This document shows, in pieces, positions 17,691-31,250 of a stretch of 64,000 nt of DNA. How positions within the stretch are numbered: position 1 is the first letter of the stretch; the number at the start of each line of letters is the position of its first letter. A model generated the notes under the pieces. That model was given only the letters and a program-made list of their open reading frames with translations. It searched no databases and had not been told where the DNA came from. The DNA is taken from NCBI GenBank assembly GCA_043808155.1, contig JAZDFD010000012.1, positions 23,822 to 87,821 on the forward strand. The letters run 5' to 3'. This DNA comes from Candidatus Iainarchaeum sp. GTDB taxonomy: Archaea; Iainarchaeota; Iainarchaeia; Iainarchaeales; JAZDFD01. Position numbers and translations under genes: made by a program.

Positions 17691-18056
17691 CTAAGTTTTT
17701 TTCAAGTATTCTTCCAAAATTTTTACTCTGCTACTTTTTGGTAATTTTTCTTTTTTTGAATAAAGCAGTTCAGCTTTTTTAAAGGGTTTTATTTCTTTTA
17801 ACTCGTTTTGAATTTGAATTGCTGTTTCTTCCAGGGCATTGATTCTTGAATAAATGTTTTCTTGCTGGTTTTTTAACCCGTTGATTTCTGCCAAAAAATC
17901 ATTGTTTTGTAAACTGCCTGTTTTTTGGTTTTTTAAAAGAGTTGTTTCAAAACCAGCGTTTGCCTTTTTATTCTTTTTTTCGGCAAACCAGAGCACAGCG
18001 TTTGCTGAGCCAAACAAGCCAATTAAAACTAACAAAAAAATGGTTATTGCAGACAT
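17691..18056 (-). CDS. Membrane-anchored coiled-coil hypothetical protein
   Basis: N-terminal TM, heptad region, G-rich SD upstream. Confidence 0.6.
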   Translation of the reverse strand: MSAITIFLLVLIGLFGSANAVLWFAEKKNKKANAGFETTLLKNQKTGSLQNNDFLAEINGLKNQQENIYSRINALEETAIQIQNELKEIKPFKKAELLYSKKEKLPKSSRVKILEEYLKKT

Positions 18057-18140
18057 AGTACCCCCCCTCCCGCAATATAATTAAAAGAGGCGAATCCTTT
18101 AAATAGCTTATTAATTTGTTAAGGTTAATGCATTATTTTT

Positions 18141-18239
18141 TTACTTTTTGCTCTTTCCATAATAGAATTCGGCAATGTATCTGTCCATTTGCTGCGCAAA
18201 AGCCTTAAACTTTTCCTGTAATCCCTTAACTGAACTCAA
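18141..18239 (-). CDS. 32-aa microprotein resembling the C-terminus of the GvpC-like protein
   Basis: TTG start 5 nt after an AGGTGA SD; MSSVKGLQEKFKAFAQQMDRYIAEFYYGKSKK. Confidence 0.55.
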   Translation of the reverse strand: MSSVKGLQEKFKAFAQQMDRYIAEFYYGKSKK

Positions 18240-18244
18240 TCCAC

Positions 18245-19015
18245 TCACCTGCGCCTTGCCAAAAACGTGTTAAATCTATCCATAATGGATGTCTTTTCCT
18301 CGTATTTTTTCCCAATTAATGTAGCGGCAATTTGTTTAAACGCATAAGCAGCCGGAGAAAAAGGGTAAAGCGTTACAACAGGCTGCCCAAAAGAAACAGA
18401 GCTCGCCACCAACGAGTCTTCAGGCACTTTCCCCAAAATTTTAATATTTCCCATGATCAAAACAATTTCCTCATCAGTTAGCTCGTGCTTGAATCTTCCG
18501 CTCCTGTTAATTATTACTCCCGCGATTTCTACTCCAAGATCTTGGGCAATCTGAATAGTTTTGCTCGCATCAGCCAACGAGGGCAATTCAGGGTTCAGGA
18601 CAATAATCGCATTTTCACTTGCCTTAAGAGCATTAATTACTTCAACCCCCAAGCCGGGAGCGCAGTCAATTAAAGTCAAATCGTTGTTTGCTTCAATTTT
18701 TTTAATCAGTTTCTTAAATTTTTTTGGTTCAAATCCCTGAAGGCTTTCAACGCCGAATGCAGCCGGAATCACTCTGACGCGTGGTTTCAATAAATAGGTT
18801 GCTTTCTCTATTCCGGCTTCTCCTCTAATTACGTCATTCAATGTTTTCACTTCTACCGGAATCTTTAAATGCAGTGCAATATTGGGCGTGGGCAAATTAG
18901 CATCAACAATAGTTATATCCTTTCCAAACATCCCTAATGCCACACCTAAATTGATTGTTGTGCAGGTTTTTCCAACACCGCCTTTTCCACTGCAGATTAA
19001 AAAACTTTTATTCAT
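18245..19015 (-). CDS. minD: MinD/ParA-family ATPase
   Basis: Deviant Walker A SGKGGVGKT, IDCAPGLG, GVIINR, C-terminal amphipathic SIMDRFNTFLARRR. Confidence 0.88.
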   Translation of the reverse strand: MNKSFLICSGKGGVGKTCTTINLGVALGMFGKDITIVDANLPTPNIALHLKIPVEVKTLNDVIRGEAGIEKATYLLKPRVRVIPAAFGVESLQGFEPKKFKKLIKKIEANNDLTLIDCAPGLGVEVINALKASENAIIVLNPELPSLADASKTIQIAQDLGVEIAGVIINRSGRFKHELTDEEIVLIMGNIKILGKVPEDSLVASSVSFGQPVVTLYPFSPAAYAFKQIAATLIGKKYEEKTSIMDRFNTFLARRR

Positions 19016-19639
19016 TCAAAATCTCCTAAGCTTTTTCAATTTTTCTTCTAATTCCTTAAATCTCTTTGCACTCCAATTAAATTCTTCTTCCTCTTTTGTT
19101 TTGGGGATTGAAATTTCAGTGTAATGCCCGATAATAGTAGCTGTTTCAACAGGCTTTTTTTCTTTCTCAACTTTTTCAATTTTTGGTTTTTCTTCCGGCA
19201 AAGATTCTTTTAAAATAGCGGCAACTAATTCTTTTTCTTTTTCAACAGGCTTAACAGCTTTCGTCTTAACCTTTGGCTTTAATTTTATTCTCTGGTTTTT
19301 AATTTTTTTCTTTTTTTCTCTTTTAACTTCTTTTTTTAATTCTGCTGCGACAGCTTTAACTTTTTCCTCAACAGCTTTAACTGGTTTTTCTATTTTCTCT
19401 TCAACCTTTTCAGTAACAGCAGCTATTTCTGGAATTTTTACATCAAATTTGGCTGCTCTTCTGTTCCATTTTGCTGTACGTTTTTCTGCCCAAGTATCCG
19501 TCCTTGCCTTTCTTCTGGCATGCCTAAAAGCATGTTTTTCTGCCCAAGTATCCGTCCTTGCCTTTCTTCTGGCATCCCTTGCAGCATCATTTCTCTCAAT
19601 TTTCGCATGATGCAAATCAATTTTTCTCTCCAAATCCAT
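19016..19639 (-). CDS. Highly charged low-complexity protein with an internal ARRKARTDTWAEK repeat
   Basis: Stop codon abuts the minD ATG; 42-bp perfect repeat at 19480-19521 and 19534-19575. Confidence 0.65.
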   Translation of the reverse strand: MDLERKIDLHHAKIERNDAARDARRKARTDTWAEKHAFRHARRKARTDTWAEKRTAKWNRRAAKFDVKIPEIAAVTEKVEEKIEKPVKAVEEKVKAVAAELKKEVKREKKKKIKNQRIKLKPKVKTKAVKPVEKEKELVAAILKESLPEEKPKIEKVEKEKKPVETATIIGHYTEISIPKTKEEEEFNWSAKRFKELEEKLKKLRRF

Positions 19640-19656
19640 ACATATCACGTGTAAAT

Positions 19657-19806
19657 TTATTCGGCTTCAAGTTTTTTGTCCCTTTCTTCAAGCCACTTGT
19701 CCCACTTTCTCTTCCACTTTGCGCTCTTGCCTGTAAAGCCACTTCTCCTTGCCCATTTAGCATTCCATCTGGCTTCCCTTCGAGAGGCTTTTTCCCCCAA
19801 TTCCAT
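19657..19806 (-). CDS. 49-aa Trp/Arg/Lys-rich microprotein
   Basis: ATG after a GGTGGA SD; MELGEKASRREARWNAKWARRSGFTGKSAKWKRKWDKWLEERDKKLEAE; fits the gap without overlaps. Confidence 0.55.
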   Translation of the reverse strand: MELGEKASRREARWNAKWARRSGFTGKSAKWKRKWDKWLEERDKKLEAE

Positions 19807-19829
19807 TTTAAATCCACCAAATAAAAATT

Positions 19830-20117
19830 TTATTTTGTTTCTTCCTCACTTATTTCTGACGGGCCAGTATCGCATTTTCTCCTTACTGAAACCCGACTGT
19901 AACCCAAAAGATTATTGCTTGCATCAAAGGTCAACTTGTATTGGCCAATGAGGTTCTGTGTGTCAGGTATTGCTTCCCTTTCAAGCACTTCAACCAATGC
20001 AACTGATTTGTTGCCTTCTTTTGTTACGCTGATTACGCTTAACGGCTTTTTATCTATCAGCTCTTTAACGTTTTCCTTAGCCAGCTTAACGATTTCATTG
20101 AATTCATTTTTTGCCAT
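19830..20117 (-). CDS. gvpO: Gas vesicle protein GvpO
   Basis: VEVLEREAIPDTQNLIGQYKLTFD...LLGYSR signature; downstream of gvpN. Confidence 0.88.
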   Translation of the reverse strand: MAKNEFNEIVKLAKENVKELIDKKPLSVISVTKEGNKSVALVEVLEREAIPDTQNLIGQYKLTFDASNNLLGYSRVSVRRKCDTGPSEISEEETK

Positions 20118-20135
20118 TTCTCATACCTCCTAACT

Positions 20136-20501
20136 TCAGGGGACATAAATGTAATGATCTCCCTTTTCCTTAACAACTTTTACTTTTTTATTTTTCCATT
20201 TACGAATGTTATCAACTAAATTGTACTCCTCCGGAGAATCTGTTAATTTGTAGTAAGTTAAAAATTTCGCAAGCTTCTCCCTTCTTAACTTGGCAATGTG
20301 ATTCGGGGTTTGCAATGAAAAAGTTCCGTCTGCTTTCAGGCAGGTGAAAAAAGTTTCCTTTACATTTTCACCGCCTTTTATTTTTGCTGTAACAACAATT
20401 GCATCAGTGTCATTGAATGTAAGGCATTTGGGCTTGCGTTTCCATAAATCAAATACTTTGTAAATCTTTGCATCTTGAATCACTGCATTTTTTTCTTCCA
20501 A
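20136..20501 (-). CDS. Hypothetical protein between gvpN and gvpO
   Basis: 121 aa ORF tightly packed in the operon. Confidence 0.65.
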   Translation of the reverse strand: MEEKNAVIQDAKIYKVFDLWKRKPKCLTFNDTDAIVVTAKIKGGENVKETFFTCLKADGTFSLQTPNHIAKLRREKLAKFLTYYKLTDSPEEYNLVDNIRKWKNKKVKVVKEKGDHYIYVP

Positions 20502-20507
20502 ATTAAT

Positions 20508-21572
20508 TCACCATTTGTGCAAGTTTAATTTATCGATTGCGGTTTTAATTAATGCCCCTTTCTGCTCCAAGTCCACTGAATCCTTTGTCTTTGAAGCAAT
20601 TGCATCAAAGCATAATTGCTCAAACAAATCCGTGCTCATGCCGTTTGTTACTCTAATTGCATGGGCAAGCATTATCGCTGGTCTTGTTCCTGGGGCTTCG
20701 GTTCCCTTCAGAGTTTCCCTCAAGTGCCTGACTACTCCAACTATTTTTTTAGCATCTGCGTCAGCAATTTTGGCGTGGGCCTTAACTATTGCAACTTCAG
20801 TTGCCTCGTCATAGTAGTCCATGTAAATTGCGCAAATTCTGTCCAGCAAAGCATCTTGCGGCTGGTGTACGCCGGCATACTCAGTATTGTTTGAGGTTAA
20901 AATCAGATTGAAATCAGGGTGCACTTTTATGTAGCGATCTTCACCAAACTTTGTTGGCAGTTCAAGAATTCCTTCTTCTAAAATCGAAAGCAAAATGTTA
21001 TTTGCCTCCGGCTTTGACCTGCTGAACTCATTATAAATCAGGGTATAGCCTTTCTGGCAGGCTAATGCCAAAGGGTTGTTAACCCACTGCGGCTCAATAA
21101 TGTCCTCACTTTTGTAAACATTGTGAATGTACTTATCCCTCAGGCTTTTCATTTCAATTCTTGAGTAGCCGCCAATTAACTCATGAGTTGTAAGCTGTTC
21201 ATCCCCGTTAATCCAAACTGCGGGCTTTCCCAGCTTTTCAGCAATGTGAATTGCCAAAGCAGTTTTTCCACAGCCTGTTGGACCAATAATATGCACGGGA
21301 TAGCCGGCCTTAATCCACAAAAGAGCCCTGTCCTCATATTTTTTAACTGCATCTGTTAAAACAAAATTTTTCGATTCTGGGGTTAAAAACTTTGCTTCAA
21401 CAATCTGGGTTTCCTCCAGCTTGTAAGTTTTCTCAATATCTCTTTCCCTTACTGCTGATTTTTTTCTTTCAACAGTCTGCTGTTTTTTTCTTTCCTCCTG
21501 CGTATGATGAACTGATTTCCCTCTAGTAGTTCTCGGATGTGTTTCTACATATGTCATTTCTTTAACCCCCAT
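20508..21572 (-). CDS. gvpN: Gas vesicle AAA+ ATPase GvpN
   Basis: GYPVHIIGPTGCGKT, TLIYNEFSRSKPEANNILL, EYAGVH..QDALLDR. Confidence 0.93.
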   Translation of the reverse strand: MGVKEMTYVETHPRTTRGKSVHHTQEERKKQQTVERKKSAVRERDIEKTYKLEETQIVEAKFLTPESKNFVLTDAVKKYEDRALLWIKAGYPVHIIGPTGCGKTALAIHIAEKLGKPAVWINGDEQLTTHELIGGYSRIEMKSLRDKYIHNVYKSEDIIEPQWVNNPLALACQKGYTLIYNEFSRSKPEANNILLSILEEGILELPTKFGEDRYIKVHPDFNLILTSNNTEYAGVHQPQDALLDRICAIYMDYYDEATEVAIVKAHAKIADADAKKIVGVVRHLRETLKGTEAPGTRPAIMLAHAIRVTNGMSTDLFEQLCFDAIASKTKDSVDLEQKGALIKTAIDKLNLHKW

Positions 21573-21758
21573 TGTAAATTTTTATCATTAAGTTTTCCCA
21601 ACTGCTAAATATTATATGTATCGCTAATTTAAACATAACGGAAACAAAAAAAATTATCGGAAAGTTAAGCCAGCAGAAAAACCTAAATATGTGTCCCATA
21701 TGTCCCAACACCCAAAAATAAAAAAAGAGAAAAGCCAAGCAAAGAGAGACACTAGTTG

Positions 21759-22130
21759 TTACTCTTTAACATGGCCGTGGTAGAACCGATCAATGAATTT
21801 CTCTGTGTCCTTTTCTAAAGCCCTTATGCTGGCATGCATTATGTTAACGCCTTTCTCTATTTCTCTAGTTTTTTCTCTTATGCCAGCTTTTACTGCATCG
21901 ATACCTTTTTCAATTTCCTTTACGGCTGCTGTGTTTTCTCGCTCCTGTGCTCTAATGCCAGCAACTACTTCCGAAGTGCCTTTCTCCATTGCCTTTACTG
22001 CTGCTTCATTTTCTCTTGCTTGCCTTTCAAATGATTCCAGATGTTTTTTTACACAAGTTACTTTCTCTTTTTCCCTATGTTTTACTCTGTGCTTTACCTT
22101 ATGTCTGGTTTTAAGTTTCTTTCTAGCCAT
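21759..22130 (-). CDS. GvpC-like helical repeat protein
   Basis: Lies between gvpA and gvpN; repeated amphipathic units RENxAAVKxxEKG...AGIR; sequence not recognisably canonical GvpC. Confidence 0.6.
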   Translation of the reverse strand: MARKKLKTRHKVKHRVKHREKEKVTCVKKHLESFERQARENEAAVKAMEKGTSEVVAGIRAQERENTAAVKEIEKGIDAVKAGIREKTREIEKGVNIMHASIRALEKDTEKFIDRFYHGHVKE

Positions 22131-22172
22131 ACATGAACTCCTCCTTTTTTAGGTATTGGAAAAGCATTAGGC

Positions 22173-22394
22173 TTACTTTGCCGGCGCTGCTATCGCTGCT
22201 TGCTCTACCTTTGTAATCTCTTCAGCGTAGTGCAGGAACGTATCAACACTTGCTACTACAACACGAGCTTCAATAGTTAAAATTTCAATTCCAACCAATG
22301 AAATTCTTGCCCATATGTCTACCACAATTCCTTTGTCTAAAATTCTGTCCAAAACTTCTGCTAAGCTTGAAACATCAGGTCCTTGATTTACCAT
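22173..22394 (-). CDS. gvpA: Major gas vesicle shell protein GvpA
   Basis: [52 protein letters not shown]; GGAGGTG SD before the ATG at 22394. Confidence 0.97.
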
Positions 22395-22483
22395 AGCTTT
22401 TACACCTCCATTTTTATTGTAAAAACTTACATTAGAAATATGTAATAGGTTGCTTATATGCTGATTTAACAAATCGCGACATG

Positions 22484-22498
22484 TGTCGGAATTCGACA
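22484..22498. promoter_or_regulatory. Palindromic operator TGTCG-N5-CGACA upstream of gvpA
   Basis: TGTCGGAATTCGACA; related copies at 24269, 24299, 32942 and 33490. Confidence 0.6.
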
Positions 22499-22697
22499 TT
22501 TGGTTAAATGCCTCAAAATATTTTTACTTGCTCGCCAGGTCTTTTCTTTTAACATACGTCAAGACCTTTTCGTCATCTCGCTTGGGGCAACTGGCTCTGA
22601 GCCAAAAACACTCTCTGCTGAAAAAAATAAAAACTTTTTCTAATCATATCAATTATTAAATATTTTTGTTGCAAATTTTACATATTGAGATAAATGC

Positions 22698-23849
22698 GTG
22701 AATGAAATGGCAAAAAGTTCAATTGTTAAATTAAAGCGCCGAAATAAAGGCATCGAAGCAGATGAATTTATTAGATTTTCCAAAAAAATTCCCTTCACAC
22801 AAAAGGAGCGAATTGTTTTTTATGGCTTAGTTAAATTTCCTGACTTAAACGACCAAAAATTGTCCAAAAAATTGAAAATTAAGAGGCCGACTGTTACAGC
22901 AATCAGAAATAAGTTGAAGAGGCAAAATTTTTATTTTCCTCGCGTTATCCCAAATTTTAAATTGCTGGACTATGAGTTAATGACATTTATTTGGGGTAAT
23001 TCAAGCTACTCTGTATCATTGGAAGAAAAAAGAAAAATTTCTGCAATTAAAAACGCTATGCAATCGCCTGAAGTAGTTTTTCAAATTATAACAGATAATG
23101 AATTTTTTTCTTTACTAATTTTTAAAAACTTTACAGAATTTAAAAAAATGGAGGATGGATTTGCACACATGTATAAAAAATATTCTTCCAGGGAACGCAA
23201 TGTTAACATTGCCCATTTTCCACTTGAAACAAGCGAAATACTTTCTTTATTTGATTATTCCTTATGTTTAAAAGATTTGTTAAAATTAAAGCCTGAAGAC
23301 AAAAAGACTGCAACAAAACCAAAAACATCAAAAGCAGTGCCATTAATGGAACTGAAGGAAAGAGAAAAGGCTGTTTTAGGCGTTCTAATCAAATACCCTG
23401 GATTAAATGATGCGGAGATTGCAGAGAAAGTTAGCATCACAAGGCAAACTGCTTCAAAAATTAAAGCAGGGTTAATAAAAGAAGGGGCAATTAAACTAAT
23501 TAATGAGCCGAATTTTAAAAAAATTGGCTGTGAGTTATTTGTTGCCACGCATACTAGATTTAATCCCCAAGTTGAACCAAATAAAAGAAAGTTGTTGCTG
23601 GAAAAGCCAAAAAGCAAATGCCCCACAATAATTGACGTGGAAAGCTGTACAGAAGAAATGTGTGGCGGCTTTTTCGAAGATTACCTAAGCTTTAAAATGA
23701 CTCAAGACGATTTGGAAAAAGTTTATAGGCAAAAGGATTTGTTGTTAAGAGAACCAGTAACCCAAATAATTCCAATGCAACAAATAAAATTTTACAAAAT
23801 AGATTTTGTTCCAATTACTGAAAAAGCCTTGAATATAAAAATACCATAA
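22698..23849 (+). CDS. Tandem Lrp/AsnC-like wHTH transcriptional regulator
   Basis: Two similar halves (FPDLNDQKLSKKLKIKRPTVTAIRNKL / YPGLNDAEIAEKVSITRQTASKIKAGL), each followed by PNFK. Confidence 0.75.
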   Translation: MNEMAKSSIVKLKRRNKGIEADEFIRFSKKIPFTQKERIVFYGLVKFPDLNDQKLSKKLKIKRPTVTAIRNKLKRQNFYFPRVIPNFKLLDYELMTFIWGNSSYSVSLEEKRKISAIKNAMQSPEVVFQIITDNEFFSLLIFKNFTEFKKMEDGFAHMYKKYSSRERNVNIAHFPLETSEILSLFDYSLCLKDLLKLKPEDKKTATKPKTSKAVPLMELKEREKAVLGVLIKYPGLNDAEIAEKVSITRQTASKIKAGLIKEGAIKLINEPNFKKIGCELFVATHTRFNPQVEPNKRKLLLEKPKSKCPTIIDVESCTEEMCGGFFEDYLSFKMTQDDLEKVYRQKDLLLREPVTQIIPMQQIKFYKIDFVPITEKALNIKIP

Positions 23850-24268
23850 AAAAGGATTATTTTTTCATTTATTTTGATTTCTGCCACTCCTTTAACTCCC
23901 ACCATTTTATCAAACAGTTTCTGACAGCAAAACCTAATTCTTCATCATCAATTTTGTTAATTATTTGAAGCCTCTTTACCACCTCTTTTGGAATATTCAT
24001 TTCCAACTTTTGTTTTGCTAGCTTTTTAGTCATTTTGAAAAACCAATCCCACGGCAATTTATTTGAATTGAAAAAGAAACCGACATATCTATAATCTTAA
24101 CTTTTAGATGTTTTAAAAGCTTAATTAATAACTTTAAGTTTTAAAAAAGAAAAAAAATATAACTTAGTGATATTTTATTTATCAAATGTTGTGGTTAAAA
24201 GTATCCGAATATTAACGTAAAGCATTTAAATTCTAACATTATGATAGTATCGGGTTAATTAATATCCG

Positions 24269-24313
24269 TGTCGGATAATGACATAAATTTCAGAAATATG
24301 TCGAAGCCCGACA
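24269..24313. promoter_or_regulatory. Two TGTCG-N5-(C/T)GACA operators upstream of the gvp accessory arm
   Basis: TGTCGGATAATGACA and TGTCGAAGCCCGACA, 30 bp apart. Confidence 0.6.
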
Positions 24314-24445
24314 AAAAAGAATAAGTCTCAAAAATTAGGGGTTGGGATATTTGGCTAAATGCATAACTAATAAAGAAAAAGCAGCGAATTCTTTTTCGGA
24401 GAATGGAACATTCAAATCACAGTCTCTTTCGGGGGGGGGCAACGA

Positions 24446-25327
24446 ATGAAAAAACATGAATCCCACACCAAAAAAATCAAAACTATTTTTTCAGGCATTG
24501 GTGGGAAGAAACACATATTGCATTTATACGTTCCAACATTGGATAAGTATGCAATTCAGTCCTCTTTTCTGGGAAATAAAAAAGAAAAAGCTGCCTATGT
24601 CTCAACCGAGCAACCAGAAACTGTGCATGCACAACTTGATTCATCACACAAAAACTTGTCAATAATTTCTCCAAAGGAAATGGAAACAATTGAAAACTAT
24701 AATAAAATAATTATTGATGCAGGCTCAATCAGTTCAAAAACAATTGACACCAGCAAAAAACACAAAAGAAAAATTGGAGAAGACTTAATAATAAAGGAAT
24801 GCACAGACCACATCAAAAGGGAAAAATATTTATCAAAGCTTAAAGGTGATAAATCAATTCTCTGCACTTATGATATAAGCAAATTAACACCAAACAAAAT
24901 CAGGCAATTAGTTAAGGTCCATGACCAATTGATTTTGACAACAGACGACACAGCTGTGGTTTCATCAAAAACCCTTTCACAAGAGCATTTGAACATCAGC
25001 AGTGAATTAATCGACGAATTCCTAAAAAATGAATTAGAAACAGTTGTTTTGGCACTAATTGTAGCAAAACCGAGGTGCGGGACAGAAATCAAAAAAGCAA
25101 TCCATAAAAAATTTGGAATTCTGCTCAGCTCCGGCACGCTTTATCCCTTACTGCACAAGCTGCAAAAAAACGATTTAGTGAAATGCGAGTACGGGGTAAA
25201 AACAAAAACATACAGACCAGCTAACGGAAAAGATATTCAAATAATTTTGGATGAAAGAATGAAGGCAAAAGATTTCTTAACCAGCTTTATTCAAGCAAAC
25301 ATGGGGGGGAATAAAAAATGGCTTTAG
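24446..25327 (+). CDS. Regulator with MEDS-like N-terminus and PadR-type wHTH (GvpE position)
   Basis: ILCTYD motif; C-terminal CGTEIKKAIHKKFGILLSSGTLYPLLHKL; overlaps the gvpF start. Confidence 0.7.
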   Translation: MKKHESHTKKIKTIFSGIGGKKHILHLYVPTLDKYAIQSSFLGNKKEKAAYVSTEQPETVHAQLDSSHKNLSIISPKEMETIENYNKIIIDAGSISSKTIDTSKKHKRKIGEDLIIKECTDHIKREKYLSKLKGDKSILCTYDISKLTPNKIRQLVKVHDQLILTTDDTAVVSSKTLSQEHLNISSELIDEFLKNELETVVLALIVAKPRCGTEIKKAIHKKFGILLSSGTLYPLLHKLQKNDLVKCEYGVKTKTYRPANGKDIQIILDERMKAKDFLTSFIQANMGGNKKWL

Positions 25328-25977
25328 GTGAATATGTTTACTGTGTTATATCTAGCAAAGACACGCCAGAAGAATTTAATATTAAAGGGATGGACGGAAA
25401 TCCCATATATCCCTTAAAATATAAACTTCTTACAGCAATAGCAAGCAAAGCAGTAATGAAAGAATACAAGCCAACAGACGAAAACGTTGAAATACACAAA
25501 AATGTTGAACTGGAAGTAATGAAACACTGCTCGGTTCTGCCAGTGGCATATGGAATGGTATTCAAAAGCAGGGGCATTGTATTGGGAACAGTGAAAAAAG
25601 TTTATCCATTGCTTTGGAGAAGCCTGAAAAAAGTGGAGAATAAAGTAGAATTGGGAATCAAAGTAATTGTTCCAAAAGAAAAAAAAGAATTAGAAAAATT
25701 ATTGAACAAAAAAAGTTTGGATGAATTCAGGAAAGAATGCGAAACAGAATTCATTGAAAATTTGAGTGAAATAGCTGTAAGTACAAAAAAAGACCGCTTG
25801 TTTTCAGATAAGCTGGTTTGCAACCAGTCATTTTTAGTGGAAAAAGATAAAGTTGATACATTCACTGAAAAAGTGGGGGAATTGAGAAACAAGCACAAGT
25901 CATTGAAAATCCAGTACACTGGACCATGGCCGGCGCACAACTTTGTAAACATAAGAATAATGGGTGGAGGCAGATAA
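25318..25977 (+). CDS. gvpF: GvpF (GvpL/GvpF family)
   Basis: YVYCVI, VLPVAYG, VELGIK, YTGPWPAHNFV. Confidence 0.88.
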   Translation: MALGEYVYCVISSKDTPEEFNIKGMDGNPIYPLKYKLLTAIASKAVMKEYKPTDENVEIHKNVELEVMKHCSVLPVAYGMVFKSRGIVLGTVKKVYPLLWRSLKKVENKVELGIKVIVPKEKKELEKLLNKKSLDEFRKECETEFIENLSEIAVSTKKDRLFSDKLVCNQSFLVEKDKVDTFTEKVGELRNKHKSLKIQYTGPWPAHNFVNIRIMGGGR

Positions 25978-25979
25978 AA

Positions 25980-26282
25980 ATGGTGCTTATGGTTGATGAT
26001 TTACTTACATTGCCATTTGCATTTGTAGGCATGGAGCTCTTGCCTAATTATTTTACTATTATATTTAATGCAATATATAAACACACTCTTGAGGAAATGT
26101 ATCCCTTGGATAAAATCAATGACGCAATAAAAGAAAACCGTATGCTGTACGAGTTTGACGAACTTACAACAAAAGAATATGAGGCAACAAAAAAACAATT
26201 AATGGAAAAATTGGAGATGGCAAAAAAGGTAAGGGATATGGATTTAGGACCAAGGTTAGATATTTTGGGAATTGGTGGTTAA
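25980..26282 (+). CDS. gvpG: Gas vesicle protein GvpG
   Basis: LMVDDLL...EEMY..IKENRMLYEFDE...EY; follows gvpF. Confidence 0.8.
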   Translation: MVLMVDDLLTLPFAFVGMELLPNYFTIIFNAIYKHTLEEMYPLDKINDAIKENRMLYEFDELTTKEYEATKKQLMEKLEMAKKVRDMDLGPRLDILGIGG

Positions 26283-26284
26283 AA

Positions 26285-26848
26285 ATGGAAAGAAAAAGAA
26301 AACCTGCGAAAGGATTGTTGGATGGATTGGCAGACTTCATCCGGTTGATTGAGGAAATGGAAAAAAAGGGCTTGACTGAACAGGTGAAAAGGGGAGACTT
26401 GGAAGGGCCTTACGGCTCAAAAGTAAAATATGAGTACAGGGTAAGAACCGGTTTGGGAATAAGGCCTGGGAGCATGGAAAGGTTTGCAGGCAAACCAAGC
26501 GAACCATTTTATAGGGCAAGCAAAAGAATGCCAACCAAGGTAATAAAGCCGGAGGAAATGAAAGAAAAAGAGGAACTGGCAGAAGTAACAGAAAAAAAAG
26601 ACACAATAGAAATTACAGTTGAACTGCCCACGGTTGAAGAAAAAGACATTGATTTAAAGATAGTGAAAAACGCTTTGAAAATTACTGTTAAAAGACCTGA
26701 GGGAAAAATAGAGAAAATGATTTCAATTCCAAAAGGCAGCAAAGCAGAAAAGATTGAAAAGGCTTCATTCAAAAACGGCATACTTGAAATAACTTTAAAA
26801 AAGAAAATAAAGAAGAAAAATAAAAAGGGGGTAAAACCAAATGGTTGA
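26285..26848 (+). CDS. gvpH: GvpH-like Hsp20/alpha-crystallin domain protein
   Basis: Y..RTGLG motif; VELPTV...FKNGILEITL; follows gvpG. Confidence 0.75.
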   Translation: MERKRKPAKGLLDGLADFIRLIEEMEKKGLTEQVKRGDLEGPYGSKVKYEYRVRTGLGIRPGSMERFAGKPSEPFYRASKRMPTKVIKPEEMKEKEELAEVTEKKDTIEITVELPTVEEKDIDLKIVKNALKITVKRPEGKIEKMISIPKGSKAEKIEKASFKNGILEITLKKKIKKKNKKGVKPNG

Positions 26849-27218
26849 CGAAATCGGCAGATGGAAGGTTGGAGCTGACTCAGTGGACAGAAGGGACGTA
26901 ATAAAAGACAGAATCAGAAGGAGGGCGGAGCAAAACTTGGAAAAAAGCAGGAGAAAAATTCTGGAGCTCAGGAGAAGATACAAAATAAAAGTCAAAAGAA
27001 ACGAGGAAAAAATGAAGAAGCGCAAAAAATATGGGGAAAAGCTGGGCCCAACATGCGTTTCCCTGATGGATTCAAGGGAAAAGGCAAAACAAAAACGCTC
27101 GGCAATAGGGTCTTTGGTTCCTGAAAAACCAAAGTTCTCCCAGGCAAAAGGCCGTCCGGAAAGAATCTATGGAAAAAAATTTGAATTAAGGGAACTGAAA
27201 CAAGAGCAAAGGAGGTAA
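26841..27218 (+). CDS. Very basic protein in GvpI position
   Basis: K/R-rich, between gvpH and the gvpJ-like genes. Confidence 0.5.
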   Translation: MVDEIGRWKVGADSVDRRDVIKDRIRRRAEQNLEKSRRKILELRRRYKIKVKRNEEKMKKRKKYGEKLGPTCVSLMDSREKAKQKRSAIGSLVPEKPKFSQAKGRPERIYGKKFELRELKQEQRR

Positions 27219-27224
27219 TCCCAA

Positions 27225-27611
27225 ATGAGAAGAAAGCATGAATGGATTCGCCAAAGAAAAAAGAGGGGGGAGGGATTTTCTGAAGAAGACTCCCCAGAAG
27301 AAACTACCGAGTTTGCAGAAGAACAGGCTGAAGAAGCAACGGGAGAACCGATTGAAGAAGCAGCGGAAGAAAAAATAGGAATAGAACCATTACAAGAACA
27401 AGAGGTTGTTTTAAGACCATTGAAAATAAGTTCACAGAAAAGAAGTTTCATAACATTCAGAAAAAGAAGAAAAATTGGTGATGGCATGCTTGAAAAAGAA
27501 ATTAAAGAGCAAAAAGCCAAAGCTAAAAAAGCAATGAAAAAGCTGATAAACGAATTACCTGAAGAGCAGAGAAAAGCATTCCTTGAGGAACTCCTTGAAG
27601 AATATGAATGA
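27225..27611 (+). CDS. Hypothetical protein with acidic and basic blocks (gvp operon)
   Basis: GGAGGT SD; E-rich centre. Confidence 0.6.
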   Translation: MRRKHEWIRQRKKRGEGFSEEDSPEETTEFAEEQAEEATGEPIEEAAEEKIGIEPLQEQEVVLRPLKISSQKRSFITFRKRRKIGDGMLEKEIKEQKAKAKKAMKKLINELPEEQRKAFLEELLEEYE

Positions 27612-27627
27612 GTTTGAGTGAAACAAA

Positions 27628-27954
27628 ATGCCTAAATTAAGACCCAAAAGTTATCAATCGCACGGAGTAAAGCAAATTATTGAAAGAATGTTAGACAAGG
27701 GAGTAGTAATTAATGCAAAGATTAGAGCTTACCTTGTTGATTTTAAATTAATTGAGCTGGAAAGCATTGTTGTGCTTGCGTCGTTTGAAACTGCGGCAAA
27801 AATTGGCGTGTCTTTCCCAAAGGGTATTGATTTTGAAACAAAAGCATGGAAGGAGCTTTTAACAAAAGAAACCTGTCCTCAATGCAGGAAAAAGGTCTAT
27901 GAAGAAGAACTGCGATTAGGTTGTCCTTGGTGCAGCTATAAATTAGGAGGTTAG
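27628..27954 (+). CDS. GvpA/J/M-family protein with C-terminal zinc ribbon
   Basis: IIERMLDKGVVINA...LASFETAAK, then CPQC...CPWC. Confidence 0.82.
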   Translation: MPKLRPKSYQSHGVKQIIERMLDKGVVINAKIRAYLVDFKLIELESIVVLASFETAAKIGVSFPKGIDFETKAWKELLTKETCPQCRKKVYEEELRLGCPWCSYKLGG

Positions 27955-27961
27955 ATTTAGG

Positions 27962-28372
27962 GTGAAGGAAAAAGAGAAATTGGAAGTAATTGAATTTGAA
28001 GATGAAGAGGCATTGCAGCCGGAAAAAAGCACCCAAACAGATTCAACTCTAGCAGCAGTGATTGACAGAGTATTGGAAAAGGGGCTGGTGATAAATGCAG
28101 ACATAACTGTAAGCGTTGCTGATACGGAACTGCTTGGGATAAAAATCAGGGCAGCACTGGCAAGTTTTGAGACAGCGGCAAAATACGGCTTGCAGTTTCC
28201 TCAGGGCACGAATATGGAAACAGCAGCATGGAAAGAGGCAATAGTTGAAAAGGAAGAATGTCCAAACTGCGGAAAGAAAGTGGAAACAGAACAGCTTTTG
28301 AATAAGTCATGCTATTGGTGCGGATGGCAGTCTGCTAAATCAAAAGCTTTGAAAAAAATTGAAGTTCGTTAA
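27962..28372 (+). CDS. gvpJ: GvpJ with C-terminal zinc ribbon
   Basis: LAAVIDRVLEKGLVINADITVSVADTELLGIKIRAALASFETAAKYGLQFP, then CPNC...CYWC. Confidence 0.88.
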   Translation: MKEKEKLEVIEFEDEEALQPEKSTQTDSTLAAVIDRVLEKGLVINADITVSVADTELLGIKIRAALASFETAAKYGLQFPQGTNMETAAWKEAIVEKEECPNCGKKVETEQLLNKSCYWCGWQSAKSKALKKIEVR

Positions 28373-28574
28373 AGCTGTAAAGGTTTTTGCAATGATTGAC
28401 CCAGTTAGCCAAACAATTCTAAGGAGGATTGAAGAAAGGGTAAAAGCAGAACCAAGAGAGGGGAATATTGCCTATAGAAAGCAGTGTCCAAGGTGTATGA
28501 AATGGCAAGTAAAAGAAGTTTTAATGAAAGAAGGTTGTTTTAAATGCGGATGGAAACAAAACAAAGCAAGGTAA
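28359..28574 (+). CDS. Stand-alone zinc-ribbon microprotein
   Basis: CPRC...GCFKCGW, same spacing as the GvpJ tails; likely start 28392. Confidence 0.65.
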   Translation: MKFVKAVKVFAMIDPVSQTILRRIEERVKAEPREGNIAYRKQCPRCMKWQVKEVLMKEGCFKCGWKQNKAR

Positions 28575-29092
28575 ATTTATTCATGAATGAATTGGATACC
28601 GAAAGCAGGTCAATTGTTTCATATCTTTTAATCAAAAAGCATGCGCGAATAAATGAGTTAAGTGATTTAATAAACGAAAATGATACTCTTACTATAATTA
28701 AAATAAAGGAAGCCATAAATCCGCTGGCTGAAAAAATTTTTGGAATGCAGATTCTTGTTTTTAAAGAAAGTGCAATTGATATAAGCGAAGGAAGGAAAGT
28801 ATTGTTTTCCTGGTGGCTGGAAAACGCGGAAGAATTAATTGAAGAGCAGAAAAAGGAATTAATTGATGTTTTTGACGAAAAAGATTATGTAAAAGTTGTA
28901 ATGGAACTGCCTGACAGCAAAAATATTAATGCAAAAATCAACGGAAACGAACTAATAATAACTGCAGAAAAATCAAATGAAAAAATTTGCAGAAAAATTC
29001 CCTTAAGTGCGGATGTGAAAAAAATAATTGGAAAAAGATACAACAACAGCGTGCTGGAAATTAAACTGGAGAAAGGGGCGGAAAATGTCTGA
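28544..29092 (+). CDS. Hsp20-domain protein with helical N-terminal domain
   Basis: IDVFDEKDYVKVVMELP...YNNSVLEIKL. Confidence 0.75.
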   Translation: MRMETKQSKVNLFMNELDTESRSIVSYLLIKKHARINELSDLINENDTLTIIKIKEAINPLAEKIFGMQILVFKESAIDISEGRKVLFSWWLENAEELIEEQKKELIDVFDEKDYVKVVMELPDSKNINAKINGNELIITAEKSNEKICRKIPLSADVKKIIGKRYNNSVLEIKLEKGAENV

Positions 29093-29144
29093 AAGGAAGA
29101 AAAGAAAAAGTAGCGATTGGTTTGAAGAATTTTGGAAAAGGTAA
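29085..29144 (+). CDS. 19-aa putative microprotein
   Basis: MSERKKRKSSDWFEEFWKR fills the gap before gvpK; G-rich SD. Confidence 0.35.
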   Translation: MSERKKRKSSDWFEEFWKR

Positions 29145-29150
29145 TAAAAA

Positions 29151-29495
29151 ATGGTTACAAAAATTGATTTGAAAAATGATGACAAAGAGAGCCTGAAAAA
29201 CGGCGTAATGGGATTGGTGCTTGCAATAGTTGAAGTGATAAGGGATGCCTTGCGCCTGCAGGCAATAAGGCGAATTGAAGGAGGCTCTCTTACAGAAGAA
29301 GAAGAGGAAAGATTGGGAAGAGCGTTGGAAGACTTTGATGAAGCAATTGAAAAAATGAAGGAAGAGCAAGGCCTGAATGAAGCAACGCAAAGTGTTAGAA
29401 ATGGTCTTGACGATTTGGCAAACGATTTAGTGAATAACTTTCTCAATGAGGAGCAAATAAAAGCTGCAGATAAGGGTGGAAAGCTTGGAAAATAA
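29151..29495 (+). CDS. gvpK: Gas vesicle protein GvpK
   Basis: GVMGLVLAIVEVIRDALRLQAIRRIEGGSLTEEEEERLGRAL. Confidence 0.92.
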   Translation: MVTKIDLKNDDKESLKNGVMGLVLAIVEVIRDALRLQAIRRIEGGSLTEEEEERLGRALEDFDEAIEKMKEEQGLNEATQSVRNGLDDLANDLVNNFLNEEQIKAADKGGKLGK

Positions 29496-30252
29496 AGAGC
29501 AGGGAAGGTATATTTACTGCGTAGCAAAAGGCAGTGAACAAACAGATTTGGGGAAAATAGGGATAGAAAACAGCGAAGTTTACACTATTCCAAGCAATGG
29601 ATTAATTGCAGTAGTGCATGACTGTGGAGCAAAAGCATACGATTCAAAAAATGAGGAAAAAGTGAAGGAATGGATTAAACAGCATGAAAATGTGATAGAG
29701 AAAACGCAGAAAAAATTTGAAACAATTGTTCCATTAAGTTTTAATGTAATAATAAAAGGGGAAAACGCAAGCAAGGAAGTGACTAATTGGCTGCAAACTG
29801 AAAAAGAGAGACTTGAAAGAAACCTGGAAAAAGTAAAGGGAAAAGAGGAATTCGGAGTGCAAATAACTTGGGACCCTATAAACATTGGAGAAAAATTAAG
29901 CAAAGAAAAAGAGGGAATCAAAAGTTTATTAGAAGAGATGGAAAAAGCCTCAAAGGGACAGGCCTACTTTATCAAACAAAAGATAAAGAAAGCATTGAAA
30001 CAGGAAATGGAAAAACTGGCTGACGAGAAATTCAAGCAATTTTATTCAGAAATCAAAAAGCACTGCTACCGGGTAAATATTGATAAAAACAAAAAAACCG
30101 AGGTAGAAAAAGAAATGCTAATGAACCTGAGCTGCCTTGTGGCAAAGGAAGAGGTTAAAGCCCTTGGAAAGGCGCTGGATAAAATAAACAAATTAGATGG
30201 ATTTAGTGTAAGGTTCACAGGTCCCTGGCCGCCTTACTCATTTGTAACTTAA
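29476..30252 (+). CDS. gvpL: GvpL (GvpL/GvpF family)
   Basis: GRYIYCVA, IVPLSF, GKEEFGV, FTGPWPPYSFV. Confidence 0.9.
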   Translation: MESLENKEQGRYIYCVAKGSEQTDLGKIGIENSEVYTIPSNGLIAVVHDCGAKAYDSKNEEKVKEWIKQHENVIEKTQKKFETIVPLSFNVIIKGENASKEVTNWLQTEKERLERNLEKVKGKEEFGVQITWDPINIGEKLSKEKEGIKSLLEEMEKASKGQAYFIKQKIKKALKQEMEKLADEKFKQFYSEIKKHCYRVNIDKNKKTEVEKEMLMNLSCLVAKEEVKALGKALDKINKLDGFSVRFTGPWPPYSFVT

Positions 30253-30259
30253 AGGAGCG

Positions 30260-30574
30260 ATGAAAATGGAACCAACGAGAGAAAAAAATGCAACGCTTGT
30301 TGATGTGCTGGACAGGGCATTGAATAAAGGATTGTTAATTAATGCTGACTTAATTATTTCAGTTGCAGATATCCCGCTTATTGGGGTTAATTTGAAAGCA
30401 GCAATTGCAGGAATGGAGACAATGCTCGAATATGGCATGATGAAAGATTGGGATGAGGCATTGAGAGCAATTGCAAGGGAAGAAAGAGCTAGAATTGCAA
30501 AAAAAGAAAAAATTATTACGTCTTTAAGTGAGAAAAATGAACACAGCACTATATCTTTACTGCGCAGTAAATGA
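30260..30574 (+). CDS. gvpM: GvpM (GvpA/J/M family)
   Basis: MEPTR...TLVDVLDRALNKGLLINADLIISVADIPLIGVNLKAAIAGMETMLEYG...WDE. Confidence 0.85.
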   Translation: MKMEPTREKNATLVDVLDRALNKGLLINADLIISVADIPLIGVNLKAAIAGMETMLEYGMMKDWDEALRAIAREERARIAKKEKIITSLSEKNEHSTISLLRSK

Positions 30575-31250
30575 AAGAAGTGAAAAAAGCTTTGGCCACA
30601 TTGGCTTTCAGGAACAGGAGGTTTACGCTGTTCCGTATAAAACTATTAGTGTTGTTGTGCAGTCTTGCTCTGCTAAGGAATTAAGGAACAAGCGCCAAAC
30701 AGAGTTAGCTATAAATCACCAATATATAATAGATTTGGTAATGAGAGAATTTAATGAGGTAATTCCATTTAATGCTGCTATAGCGGTTAAAAACAAAAAA
30801 AATTTGAATAAAGTGCTTTCACTCAAATACAAAAAAATTAAATCAGAGTTGGCGGAAAAAAAAGACAAAAGGGAATACGGCATTCAAATATTTTATTCTC
30901 CTCTCTATTTAAAGGAAAAAGCAGGGGTTTTAACCAGTGTAAAGTCATTTGTTTTGCAGCAGGAGCAAAAAAGAAACCTGTCAATGCATAAAGAAGCCAA
31001 ATACAAAACCTTCCTGTTAAACGAGTTAAGGGAGTTAATTGATGAAATAAAAGTTAACTCCGCTTTCAGGGCATCAATTGAAGACTTAAGGGATAAAAGA
31101 ATTTTATTAAACTTAAGCTGTTTGGTGCATAAGGACAATGCAAAAAAACTTGAGGAAAAACTTGCTGAAATCAATAATAAAAAGGAATTCACCGTCAAAT
31201 TTAACGGCCCGTGGGCGCCATATTCTTTTACAGAAATACTTGAGGAATGA
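30528..31250 (+). CDS. Third GvpL/GvpF-family protein
   Basis: LYLYCAV, VIPF, EYGIQI, FNGPWAPYSF. Confidence 0.85.
   Translation: MRKMNTALYLYCAVNERSEKSFGHIGFQEQEVYAVPYKTISVVVQSCSAKELRNKRQTELAINHQYIIDLVMREFNEVIPFNAAIAVKNKKNLNKVLSLKYKKIKSELAEKKDKREYGIQIFYSPLYLKEKAGVLTSVKSFVLQQEQKRNLSMHKEAKYKTFLLNELRELIDEIKVNSAFRASIEDLRDKRILLNLSCLVHKDNAKKLEEKLAEINNKKEFTVKFNGPWAPYSFTEILEE

Follow-up and report, generated by a model that had tools for sequence, protein, structure and literature searches.

Judged from gene order and sequence conservation, the genes pep49, p207, minD and pep35 (together with tmcc121, if it is counted in) form a lineage-specific accessory module of the gas-vesicle (gvp) operon in one Iainarchaeal lineage. 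The module lies in the window, i.e., the whole stretch of 64,000 nucleotides that was analysed, and the original prediction had suggested that it might tether, space or segregate gas vesicles. We tentatively propose that it may act as a membrane-based, MinD-type system which positions or partitions gas vesicles as its cargo.

The host genome is a 1.08-Mb Iainarchaeum-type DPANN MAG. Groundwater-metagenome labels were carried by the best matching DNA datasets (word shares 0.33 and 0.21), from which no habitat is claimed. The genes named in the original prediction were all present on the minus strand, where their order is gvpA, gvpC-like, gvpN, orf121, gvpO, pep49, p207, minD, pep35 and tmcc121. 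The features are listed below.

22173..22394, minus strand: gvpA, major gas-vesicle shell protein (Pfam Gas_vesicle, E 2.6e-14)
21759..22130, minus strand: gvpC-like gene for a basic helical-repeat protein that ends ...KFIDRFYHGHVKE; no Pfam family
21573..21758, minus strand: intergenic gap 5' of gvpN with T7 at 21726, T8 at 21653 and a TATA-like TTTAAATT at 21633
20508..21557, minus strand: gvpN, AAA+ ATPase (NCBIfam TIGR02640, 343 bits against a cut-off of 266.8; Pfam AAA_5)
20136..20501, minus strand: orf121, unnamed gene between gvpN and gvpO; no Pfam or NCBIfam family
19830..20117, minus strand: gvpO (Pfam GvpO, E 1.5e-16)
19657..19806, minus strand: pep49, Trp/Lys/Arg-rich peptide of 49 aa; its ortholog at locus L027 is 59% identical
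19016..19639 (or from a GTG start at 19648), minus strand: p207, basic, largely disordered protein of 207 aa, candidate MinD adaptor
19480..19587, minus strand: 54-nt tandem duplication in p207 (18 aa twice, copies 93% identical)
18245..19015, minus strand: minD, MinD-type ATPase (TIGR01969, Pfam ParA/CbiA), second paralogue, "clade A"
18141..18248, minus strand: pep35, mini-GvpC-like peptide that ends ...RYIAEFYYGKSKK; its GTG start overlaps the minD stop
18057..18140, minus strand: 84-nt gap between pep35 and tmcc121 with a TATA-like TATTTAAA at 18105 and the ribosome-binding site GGAGGGGGGG
17691..18056, minus strand: tmcc121, N-terminal transmembrane helix, KKNKK, cytoplasmic coiled coil

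The likely start of gvpA is the internal ATG at 22394, in agreement with GvpA of L187, a Nanoarchaeota locus in which a homologue of the gvpC-like gene (40% identity) also lies 3' of gvpA. The gvpC-like proteins of the window, of L187 and of the Methanothrix locus L188 have an FY[FYH]G tail in common. Homologues of orf121 occupy the gvpN-gvpO interval in L027, L187, L188 and L199 and another position of the cluster in L197 and L200.

From gvpO to pep35 the successive genes are separated by 23, 17 (or 8 with the GTG start of p207), 0 and -4 nt. A motif scan revealed neither a T-run of at least six nor a TATA-like motif in the gaps that separate the genes gvpN through pep35, and detected such signals before gvpN, before tmcc121 and after tmcc121. 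The gap ahead of gvpN is predicted to hold a partial terminator together with an internal promoter, and tmcc121 possibly has its own promoter in the 84-nt gap. The original prediction had allowed for a promoter or terminator that would set the module apart from gvpO; no predicted signal of this kind lies in the gaps between gvpN and pep35. A sigma-70 scan, which gave 11 sites against 12.1 expected, was uninformative, this promoter type being wrong for an archaeon.

The MinD of the module is a single-domain protein of 256 aa that passed the archaeal MinD cut-off (NCBIfam TIGR01969, 222.7 bits against 201.75). Its deviant Walker A motif is SGKGGVGKT, and residues K11, G12, G13, G15, K16, T17, D38 and D117 are invariant in 18/18 clade members; we take the signature lysine of MinD to be the Walker A residue and the conserved aspartates to belong to the switch and Walker B regions. 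Because the signature and catalytic residues do not vary within the clade, clade-A MinD is predicted to be a competent ATPase. The amphipathic tail described earlier was recovered as well: the C-terminal IMDRFNTFLAR, conserved in the clade, has a hydrophobic moment of 0.64 (rank 5 of 246 windows; 0.65 for the tail of a Paenibacillus MinD), which is consistent with a putative membrane-targeting role. In a 70-row tree, for which 4 bacterial MinDs served as the root and 68 of the 120 listed homologues were left out, the query fell inside a DPANN "MinD2" group (36 rows, SH-aLRT 98) apart from bacterial MinD, and the clade-A side of its branch comprised 19 rows including the query (SH-aLRT 80). The other MinD of the host is 36% identical to the module MinD and groups elsewhere in the tree. 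Compared with housekeeping archaeal MinDs, as had been suggested earlier, the module protein is thus a distinct paralogue.

MinD4 and MinD2 of Haloferax volcanii are archaeal MinDs, the family to which the window protein is assigned by TIGR01969 and by its place in the tree. MinD4 is reported to position archaella and chemosensory arrays rather than the division ring and to depend on its membrane-targeting sequence (10.1101/2020.04.03.021790); the C-terminal amphipathic helix of the window MinD resembles this sequence as described there. In both organisms the protein is one of several paralogues per genome and its role, putative in our case, is other than division-site selection. The window MinD differs in that it is encoded in a gas-vesicle operon and coupled to a private partner gene, that it is known from genes alone, that its candidate cargo is a protein-shelled organelle and that it comes from a DPANN archaeon whose genome measures about 1.1 Mb. 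With bacterial MinCDE it has in common the deviant Walker A ATPase, a putative membrane-binding tail and a small partner gene beside minD. However, the bacterial MinD cut-off was missed (TIGR01968, 114.7 bits against 212.9), the partner is unlike MinE or MinC, with no match to either family among the neighbouring genes in the Pfam and NCBIfam scans, and the context is gas vesicles and not division.

The stop codon of p207 abuts the start of minD (TGAATG). The protein begins with a basic helix that contains Trp, continues with a Lys/Glu-rich linker of variable length and closes with about 50 conserved C-terminal aa ending RFKELEEKLKKLRRF; 49% of its residues are charged, the net charge is +24 and the pI 10.0. 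Its ESM Atlas model had a pLDDT of 0.55 and no informative relatives. The original prediction had described it as a charged repeat protein touching minD. Its charge and the contact of stop and ATG held true, whereas the repeat is the tandem duplication listed above. None of the 8 further family members in alignment A3 has it, so it characterises this genome rather than the family. The p207 family yielded 7 matches among 5.8 billion proteins in a whole-database search and 12 when 1.84 billion representatives were searched with a profile, and its members share 5 contigs with clade-A MinDs, as judged from equal contig size and source. Since the family is so small and co-occurs with the clade, p207 is a candidate private partner of clade-A MinD. 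A complex prediction with the MinD dimer, ATP and the C-terminal 58 residues of p207 scored 0.05 against a mark of 0.32 and counts neither way. We also considered the p207 N-terminus as a pep49-like domain and dropped this idea: a BLASTP comparison of the single pair (E 0.009) aligned a different region, and hhalign gave a probability of 0.4% when the pep49 group was compared with the p207 family, so that a loose KW...KW likeness remains at the motif level.

The basic character of p207 (net charge, pI) would also fit a protein that binds DNA, and small basic partners are commonly found with ParA-type ATPases. MinD and p207 could then be a ParA/ParB-like pair segregating the chromosome or a mobile element. 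We regard such DNA partition as very improbable: the MinD missed the ParA_partition cut-off (NF041546, 49.6 bits against 180) while passing that of archaeal MinD, and it carries a MinD-like C-terminal amphipathic helix. Moreover, the contig has a housekeeping content (IleRS, thermosome), no integrase or replication gene was seen adjoining the module, and no recognisable DNA-binding fold was found in p207 with Pfam, NCBIfam or the Atlas model.

The small open reading frames on both sides of this pair appear in the orthologous locus L027 too. Relative to L027, dN/dS was 0.21 for pep49 and 0.17 for pep35, at a dS of at least 1 in both cases, which argues that the two are real genes; judged from the coding sequences, purifying selection acts on all parts of the module. 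The pep49 peptide contains 5 Trp and 16 Lys/Arg residues (pI 10.3). At the motif level (KW...KW...W) it resembles two small ORFs that L187 carries between its gvpC-like gene and gvpN; the BLASTP value for a single such pair, E 0.17, was not significant.

The pep35 peptide, which is 32 aa long if started at the TTG at 18239, terminates in FYYG plus four residues as does the GvpC-like protein, and its L027 ortholog (pep39) ends KFIDEFYYGKHKK. A strict tail motif, [FY][IV]x[DENRKQ]FY[FYH]G with no more than 6 residues after it, was defined once these sequences had been seen. Among the 21,885 segments of the six-frame translated genome it occurred in 2, both of them in this operon (pep35 and the GvpC-like protein). 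The loose form, FY[FYH]G within 6 residues of the stop, was found in 4 of the 21,885 segments, pep35 and the GvpC-like protein among them, and in 2 of 40,429 segments from 2 Mb of unrelated MinD loci. The tail motif is also present in pep39 of L027, in the GvpC-like proteins of L187 and L188 and in a free-standing 48-aa ORF of L187 (orf48) 3' of the gvpC-like gene. BLASTP produced no alignment of pep35 with the GvpC-like protein of the window or with orf48. The likeness of the 32-aa peptide to the GvpC-like C-terminus, noticed from the start, therefore stands at the level of the motif but not of an alignment. The position of this tail 3' of MinD and of gvpO 5' of it, i.e., gvp-type genes on both sides, suggests that MinD is linked to gas vesicles.

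The TM-anchored coiled coil was likewise found as described (18056..17691), with a single transmembrane helix at the N-terminus and a long helix after it. The L027 ortholog of tmcc121 (tmcc141) is 56-64% identical with a dN/dS of 0.34. The structural neighbours of tmcc121 in the ESM Atlas are generic TM-plus-helix proteins, and we consider it a candidate membrane anchor or landmark.

Near relatives of the MinD (62-88% identity) retain the p207-MinD pair, and gvpO is retained as well where this was checkable, namely in one sequenced locus and one inferred contig. The sequenced locus is L027, whose MinD is 77% identical and whose genes follow the same order, gvpN-orf121-gvpO-pep49-p216-MinD...pep39-tmcc141, at a dS of about 0.7-1.1 from the window. 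A Logan contig of 5440 nt would encode GvpO (P0133), a p207 homologue (P0152) and a 63% identical MinD (P0015), the three being placed together by equal size and source. On the same grounds, p207 homologues accompany clade-A MinDs on contigs of 2990, 5893, 3339 and 3169 nt, and an NCBI contig of 6222 nt carries GvpO (P0129) and a p207 homologue (P0121). The number of relative loci, obtained from alignment-based scans, is to be read as "at least". As to whether the closest MinD homologues are ever found near gvp genes, on which the original prediction had staked its case, they are so found in L027 and, as far as size and source tell, at 63% identity next to GvpO. Synteny was verified by sequence at two loci, the window and L027. 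These also share a convergent, unrelated ComF-like gene (68% identity), so part of the conservation possibly reflects recent common descent. The search of genome contigs with the single MinD matched only a 3.3-kb contig (L003) of genome G134 with an identical MinD; although assigned to another family, we take it to be a mis-binned piece from the same population and did not accept it as an independent occurrence.

The nearest MinDs outside clade A, those of G014 and G024 (49% identity), are surrounded by riboflavin, exosome, prefoldin, pentose-phosphate and fn3 surface-protein genes. At these loci 0 of 22 ORFs scanned belonged to a gvp family, no gvp or module protein, p207 included, had a match, and gvpA is absent from both genomes (97% and 92% complete). 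The occurrence of sister MinD2 genes in gvp-free genomes implies that MinD2 proteins serve, or once served, a function in which gas vesicles play no part. Conversely, MinD was missing from all seven gvp loci outside the lineage (L187, L188 and L196-L200, from a Nanoarchaeota order and Methanothrix; tblastn E <1), in which gvpO is followed 3' by a MEDS/PadR-type regulator or directly by gvpF. Gas vesicles thus do not generally need such a module, and MinD, present in the window and L027, is indeed no canonical gvp gene. The minD-gvpO linkage was borne out within clade A where this was checkable but is confined to one narrow lineage. The other gvp-bearing genome of the order, G174, has only a housekeeping-type MinD (33% identity); as its assembly is 82% complete and also without gvpO and a true gvpA, its silence on MinD says nothing.

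These data could also mean adjacency without shared function, in that p207, MinD and tmcc121 would be an ancestral MinD2 module of these DPANN archaea, for another cargo or for envelope shaping, which ended up 3' of gvpO on acquisition or rearrangement of the gvp cluster, and read-through from the gvp genes would be incidental. Besides the unrelated neighbourhoods of the sister MinD2 genes and the seven gvp loci without MinD, this explanation draws on the gvp cluster being probably a late arrival, since gvpA occurs in only 2/196 genomes of the order. Furthermore, related clusters run collinearly gvpO-(regulator)-gvpF, while in the host lineage the cluster consists of two divergent operons split just after gvpO, so unrelated neighbours may have been joined there by rearrangement; the ComF-like gene shared with L027 extends synteny beyond any functional unit. 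Nevertheless, we consider it rather unlikely. A peptide with a GvpC-type tail lies downstream of MinD and overlaps the minD stop, and p207 is absent beside the sister MinD2 genes, being known only with clade-A MinD and, where visible, GvpO. In addition, no terminator or promoter is predicted between gvpO and minD, and the arrangement appears to persist at a MinD identity of 63%.

The positioning reading finds a parallel in the carboxysome system McdA/McdB, cited in support of the original prediction. In both cases an ATPase would be paired with an adjacent adaptor in a two-gene logic, the adaptor is highly charged and largely disordered with a poorly conserved middle, and the candidate cargo is a low-copy, protein-bounded organelle. 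Residue W189 of p207, invariant in 9/9 close members (all rows of A3), recalls the C-terminal Trp reported as invariant in McdB (PMC11321042); in contrast to McdB, it is replaced in four more distant relatives (P0153, P0154, P0155 and P0157). The Pfam and NCBIfam scans revealed no sequence similarity of p207 to McdB. The analogy extends to the adaptor but not to the type of ATPase, as McdA is described as ParA-type and nucleoid-bound, and the window ATPase is MinD-type with a putative membrane helix.

According to the proposed mechanism, ATP-bound MinD dimers would attach to the membrane from inside the cell by means of their C-terminal amphipathic helix. As a dedicated adaptor, p207 would contact the gas-vesicle surface, or a protein on it, with one end, and with the other, most likely the conserved C-terminal helix, whose codons lie immediately 5' of minD, would bind MinD and stimulate its ATPase. 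Cycles of binding and release might then spread, tether or partition the few vesicles of a very small cell. Because of its shared C-terminal tail, pep35 may use or compete for the docking site of the GvpC-like protein, and tmcc121 could serve as a membrane anchor or landmark. It is conceivable, and we put it more cautiously, that this is the first ParA/MinD positioning or partition system dedicated to gas vesicles, made up of a membrane-bound MinD and a disordered, McdB-like p207. The mini-GvpC peptide and the membrane-anchored coiled coil also figure in that reading, as accessory docking parts.

The module might instead contribute to gas-vesicle biogenesis by analogy with the ArsA/Get3-type ATPases of bacterial gvp clusters, with MinD and p207 marking or energising nucleation or assembly near the membrane or acting as chaperones of hydrophobic shell proteins. 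The module is situated in the gvpN-gvpO unit, whose known members act in assembly, and ArsA is of the same P-loop class as MinD. Castillo and Saier (2010, PMC2963123) reported ArsA homologues from such clusters in four phyla of bacteria, with the proposal that they "energize a biogenic step". These ArsA/Get3 proteins, like the window MinD, are P-loop ATPases found besides GvpN among gvp genes, but as described there they are two-domain, bacterial and about 600 aa long, in contrast to the single-domain archaeal MinD of 256 aa. A biogenesis role seems improbable: the window MinD does not belong to the ArsA family (TIGR00345, 21 bits where 135 are required), and related gvp clusters manage without the module. 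To our knowledge, those MinD/ParA proteins that combine a membrane-targeting helix with a small stimulating partner act in positioning and not as chaperones.

We know of no other widespread protein-shelled organelle than gas vesicles for which an active positioning or inheritance system has not been described, and our literature search found no paper tying MinD or ParA to gas vesicles. If the positioning reading is true, the cargo list of ParA/MinD would gain a new class of organelle and would reach into the DPANN archaea, and each daughter of an ultrasmall DPANN cell would inherit buoyancy. The compact five-gene cassette would then be testable in heterologous gas-vesicle expression systems, which are already used as acoustic reporters. 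Ultrasmall archaea are thought to be host-dependent, and buoyancy control in them would bear on their lifestyle. No descriptions of DPANN gvp clusters were found in our literature search; among the genomes analysed such clusters are rare, occurring in two orders (2/196 genomes of the host's order and 7/240 of another).

The window genome (1.08 Mb, 35 contigs, 88% complete) carries its gas-vesicle genes on contig C12. From the ORF list, the sequence and Pfam, the following minus-strand order was obtained:

22394..22173, (-), gvpA, from the ORF list and sequence, named by Pfam
22130..21759, (-), GvpC-like basic repeat protein, from the ORF list and sequence, no Pfam family; a 186-nt gap separates it from gvpN
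21557..20508, (-), gvpN, Pfam AAA_5
20501..20136, (-), orf121, no Pfam or NCBIfam family
20117..19830, (-), gvpO, named by Pfam
19806..19657, (-), pep49, small protein, no Pfam family
19639..19016, (-), p207, basic protein of 207 aa, no Pfam family
19015..18245, (-), MinD, Pfam MinD/ParA fold
18248..18141, (-), pep35, small protein, no Pfam family; an 84-nt gap separates it from tmcc121
18056..17691, (-), tmcc121, TM-anchored coiled coil, no Pfam family

A ComF-like phosphoribosyltransferase gene, convergent to the module, ends 9 nt away. The divergent plus-strand operon starts with two regulators (TrmB/MarR-type and MEDS/PadR-type) and continues with gvpF, gvpG, an Hsp20/GvpH-like gene, two gvpJ-like genes, gvpK, gvpL, gvpM and a third gvpF/L gene. 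The original prediction, which proposed a gvp-linked MinD module as a gas-vesicle positioning system, had described the genes that follow gvpO one by one, and the ORF order, the sequence and the Pfam and NCBIfam matches showed every item to be correct, with the nuance that the p207 'repeat' is a 54-nt tandem duplication private to the window genome. Intergenic coding-strand runs of at least six T and TATA-like motifs were scanned as predictors of transcription signals. Such signals were predicted 5' of gvpA, between the gvpC-like gene and gvpN, and after tmcc121; ahead of tmcc121 the scan gave a TATA-like motif only. As to a promoter or terminator separating gvpO from the module, the scan detected neither a T-run nor a TATA-like motif in the gaps from gvpN to pep35, and at the p207/minD and minD/pep35 junctions the start codon abuts or overlaps the stop codon. 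The likely transcription units are gvpA-gvpC and gvpN to pep35, the latter perhaps including tmcc121, for which an extra promoter is possible.

The window ATPase scored 222.7 bits against the NCBIfam archaeal MinD model TIGR01969 (cut-off 201.75) and remained far under the cut-offs of all the bacterial MinD, ParA partition and ArsA models of NCBIfam. DNA partition, a rival function for a protein of the MinD/ParA fold, is in our view highly improbable. Among 5.8 billion proteins we found a tight set of 17 relatives of the window MinD (62-88% identity), after which identity dropped to 52% or less. Throughout this set no variation was seen in the deviant Walker A motif, either of its lysines or the conserved aspartates, and the C-terminal amphipathic helix is retained. 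A maximum-likelihood tree was built from 70 rows (52 of the 120 listed homologues and 18 rows from loci and genomes) and rooted with four bacterial MinDs. The window MinD and its close relatives (clade A, 19 rows) all fall on the same side of a branch with an SH-aLRT of 80 and are nested with five relatives of 46-52% identity (support 97). Compared with other archaeal MinDs, as originally proposed, the window protein falls within a DPANN-wide group, MinD2 (36 rows, support 98), apart from the second MinD of its genome (contig C1, 36% identity), which groups with another Iainarchaeal MinD and methanogen MinDs.

The gvp linkage of a clade A MinD was verified by sequence in L027, a metagenome contig whose MinD is 77% identical to that of the window. 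The order is as in the window: gvpN, orf121, gvpO, a 49-aa ORF, a 216-aa p207 homologue and MinD, followed by three extra small membrane ORFs, a 39-aa ORF ending KFIDEFYYGKHKK, a 141-aa TM coiled coil and a convergent ComF-like gene. The window has no counterpart of the extra ORFs (32, 56 and 114 aa; L027 3581-4194), which separate MinD from the pep35 ortholog; the 114-aa one has an HEFVH (HExxH-like) motif. Further co-locations are deduced from the equal size and source of contig records and not from read sequence: GvpO P0133 (77%), p207 homologue P0152 and MinD P0015 (63%) on a 5440-nt Logan contig, GvpO P0129 and p207 homologue P0121 on a 6222-nt NCBI contig, and a p207 homologue with a clade A MinD on each of four contigs of 2990, 5893, 3339 and 3169 nt. 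For two of these, the contigs of 5893 and 2990 nt, no GvpO was among the matches listed. Inside clade A the MinD-gvp link is conserved, so far as these contigs show. A 3321-nt contig of another genome (G134:C8, locus L003) carries the end of p207, MinD, pep35, tmcc121 and ComF, all 100% identical to the window; this genome belongs to another family and lacks gvpA, and the contig was probably mis-binned from the window's population.

Between the window and L027 the synonymous divergence is about 0.7-2 and dN/dS ranges from 0.11 to 0.34 across every gene. It is 0.21 for pep49 and 0.17 for pep35, and both are genuine genes under constraint. The GvpC-like proteins of this cluster type (window; L187 from Nanoarchaeota; L188 from Methanothrix harundinacea) have a C-terminus of the form [FY][IV]x[polar]FY[FYH]G, with a few residues after it, and in L187 a separate 48-aa ORF that has a single repeat and this tail lies directly 3' of the gvpC-like gene. 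The likeness of a 32-aa peptide to the GvpC-like C-terminus, pointed out in the original prediction, was borne out: the strict tail motif occurs in 2 of the 21,885 six-frame segments of the 1.08-Mb genome, namely in the GvpC-like protein and pep35, both four residues before the stop. A looser motif occurs four times in this genome and in 2 of 40,429 segments from unrelated loci; since the motif was defined after the sequences had been seen, the exact odds are inflated. Judged by its tail, pep35 is best read as a mini-GvpC, and gvp-type genes therefore flank p207-minD on both sides. Its tail is the strongest single point for MinD being embedded in the gvp unit, not appended to it. A role of the module in vesicle assembly and not in placement seems unlikely. 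On the other flank, pep49 shares three aligned Trp, two of them preceded by Lys, with two small ORFs between the gvpC-like gene and gvpN in L187, a loose likeness without statistical support. Short ORFs 5' of gvpN, on the strand opposite to it, were seen in two distant clusters, L188 (~8429, -) and the Nanoarchaeota locus L197 (~11544, +). Close to its end each contains ...F[FY]YGFY..., which may point to a conserved DNA element preceding gvpN and not to a gene.

Outside clade A, the MinD2 genes of genomes G014 and G024 (49% identical to the window MinD) have housekeeping genes as neighbours; of the 22 ORFs scanned around them, none matched a gvp family, and gvpA was not found in either genome. 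Only L027 has gvp genes among the 160 loci listed by MinD similarity (L027-L186), and gvpA (PF00741) is present in 2 of the 196 genomes of the window's order. From the gvp side, a Nanoarchaeota order of 240 genomes gave a GvpO match in 7 (six over the cut-off). In the six Nanoarchaeota loci read (L187, L196-L200), what comes after gvpO is a MEDS/PadR-type regulator, a wHTH coiled-coil protein or the contig end, and in L188 three gvpA genes, the GvpC-like gene, gvpN, orf121 and gvpO are followed directly by gvpF. No match to MinD, p207 or tmcc121 was obtained at E <1 in these seven loci. The proposed minD-gvpO linkage thus held inside clade A (L027, and by deduction the 5440-nt contig) and failed outside it (G014, G024, seven gvp loci); by these gene neighbourhoods it is absent there from the MinD side and the gvp side alike. 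Adjacency without shared function is a rival reading of so restricted a linkage, somewhat less likely than a role in vesicle placement or partition; the pep35 tail speaks against it.

Complete gas-vesicle clusters are rare in DPANN genomes (window 17691-32400; G174:C128; L187, L196-L200). Their type (gvpA, GvpC-like, gvpN, orf121, gvpO and further genes) is common to DPANN and M. harundinacea, which suggests transfer of the cluster between methanogens and DPANN. orf121, at 33-82% identity, lies between gvpN and gvpO in L027, L187, L188 and L199, whereas L197 and L200 have it at another place in the cluster; it is an unnamed gvp-associated family. The MEDS-like regulator with PadR wHTH is also kept in gvp clusters (window 24446-25327, +; L196 1004-1789; L197 9271-9990; L198 1403-2122; L200 8300-9019); its slot in Nanoarchaeota is between gvpO and gvpF, and the MinD module adjoins that slot in the window. 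Located 37 nt 5' of the G014 MinD2 gene (L017), an 849-aa fn3 surface protein (L017 7393-9942) has a C-terminal TM helix and then a short cytoplasmic tail, basic and helical (...KKDSLEKIEDKIKGLRSKEDL), that loosely recalls the p207 C-terminus and could be another cargo adaptor for the MinD2 lineage.

The p207 family is very small, with 7 matches in a word-indexed search and 12 when 1.84 billion representatives were searched in full with a profile. Its members have in common a basic N-terminal helix containing Trp, a linker rich in Lys and Glu that differs greatly in length, and a C-terminal block, FT[ED]IS[IM]P...RFKELEEKLKxLRRF-COOH. The Trp of this block is present in all 9 close members and replaced in four distant ones. 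The Atlas model of p207 is of low confidence (pLDDT 0.55). The position, charge, disorder and private distribution of p207 fit an ATPase adaptor or activator, and in these respects, with no sequence relation claimed, it can be likened to McdB, which acts in this way for McdA (PMC11321042).

The data are consistent with recruitment of a lineage-specific accessory module into the gvp operon. Its parts would be a DPANN MinD2 paralogue that already existed, a new partner, a mini-GvpC and a coiled coil anchored in the membrane. As its most likely mechanism we tentatively favour a MinD-type system that acts at the membrane to place or partition a low-copy organelle; very small cells with few vesicles may need active inheritance. 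The nearest precedent is that of ArsA homologues encoded in bacterial gvp clusters (PMC2963123). Literature searches, with subscription journals and supplements outside their scope, returned no publication linking gas vesicles with MinD, ParA, ParA-like proteins or positioning, and none, as judged from the listings for DPANN and its phylum names, on gvp genes in DPANN archaea. One apparent gas vesicle-MinD match was the English word 'mind'.

Just outside the gvp cluster, window 32444-32878 (-) encodes a protein of 144 aa without a Pfam family, which has a TM helix at its N-terminus and an acidic repeat rich in Cys (C-x-E-G-E-C-like units). A multi-pass membrane protein of ~140 aa (33054-33464, -; ending ...GLKAVYALAKT) resembles two tandem membrane proteins 3' of the gvpO region in L199 (2626-3534; ...SLKTMYALATK and ...GLKHLFDLLAT), and these may form another cluster-associated family. 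Judged from their translations, two small gene pairs resemble toxin-antitoxin modules. One combines a zinc-ribbon/AbrB-like protein and a partner of 87 aa (33708-34285, -), and the other is a RelE/ParE-like pair of 84 aa and 86 aa (35362-35877, +).
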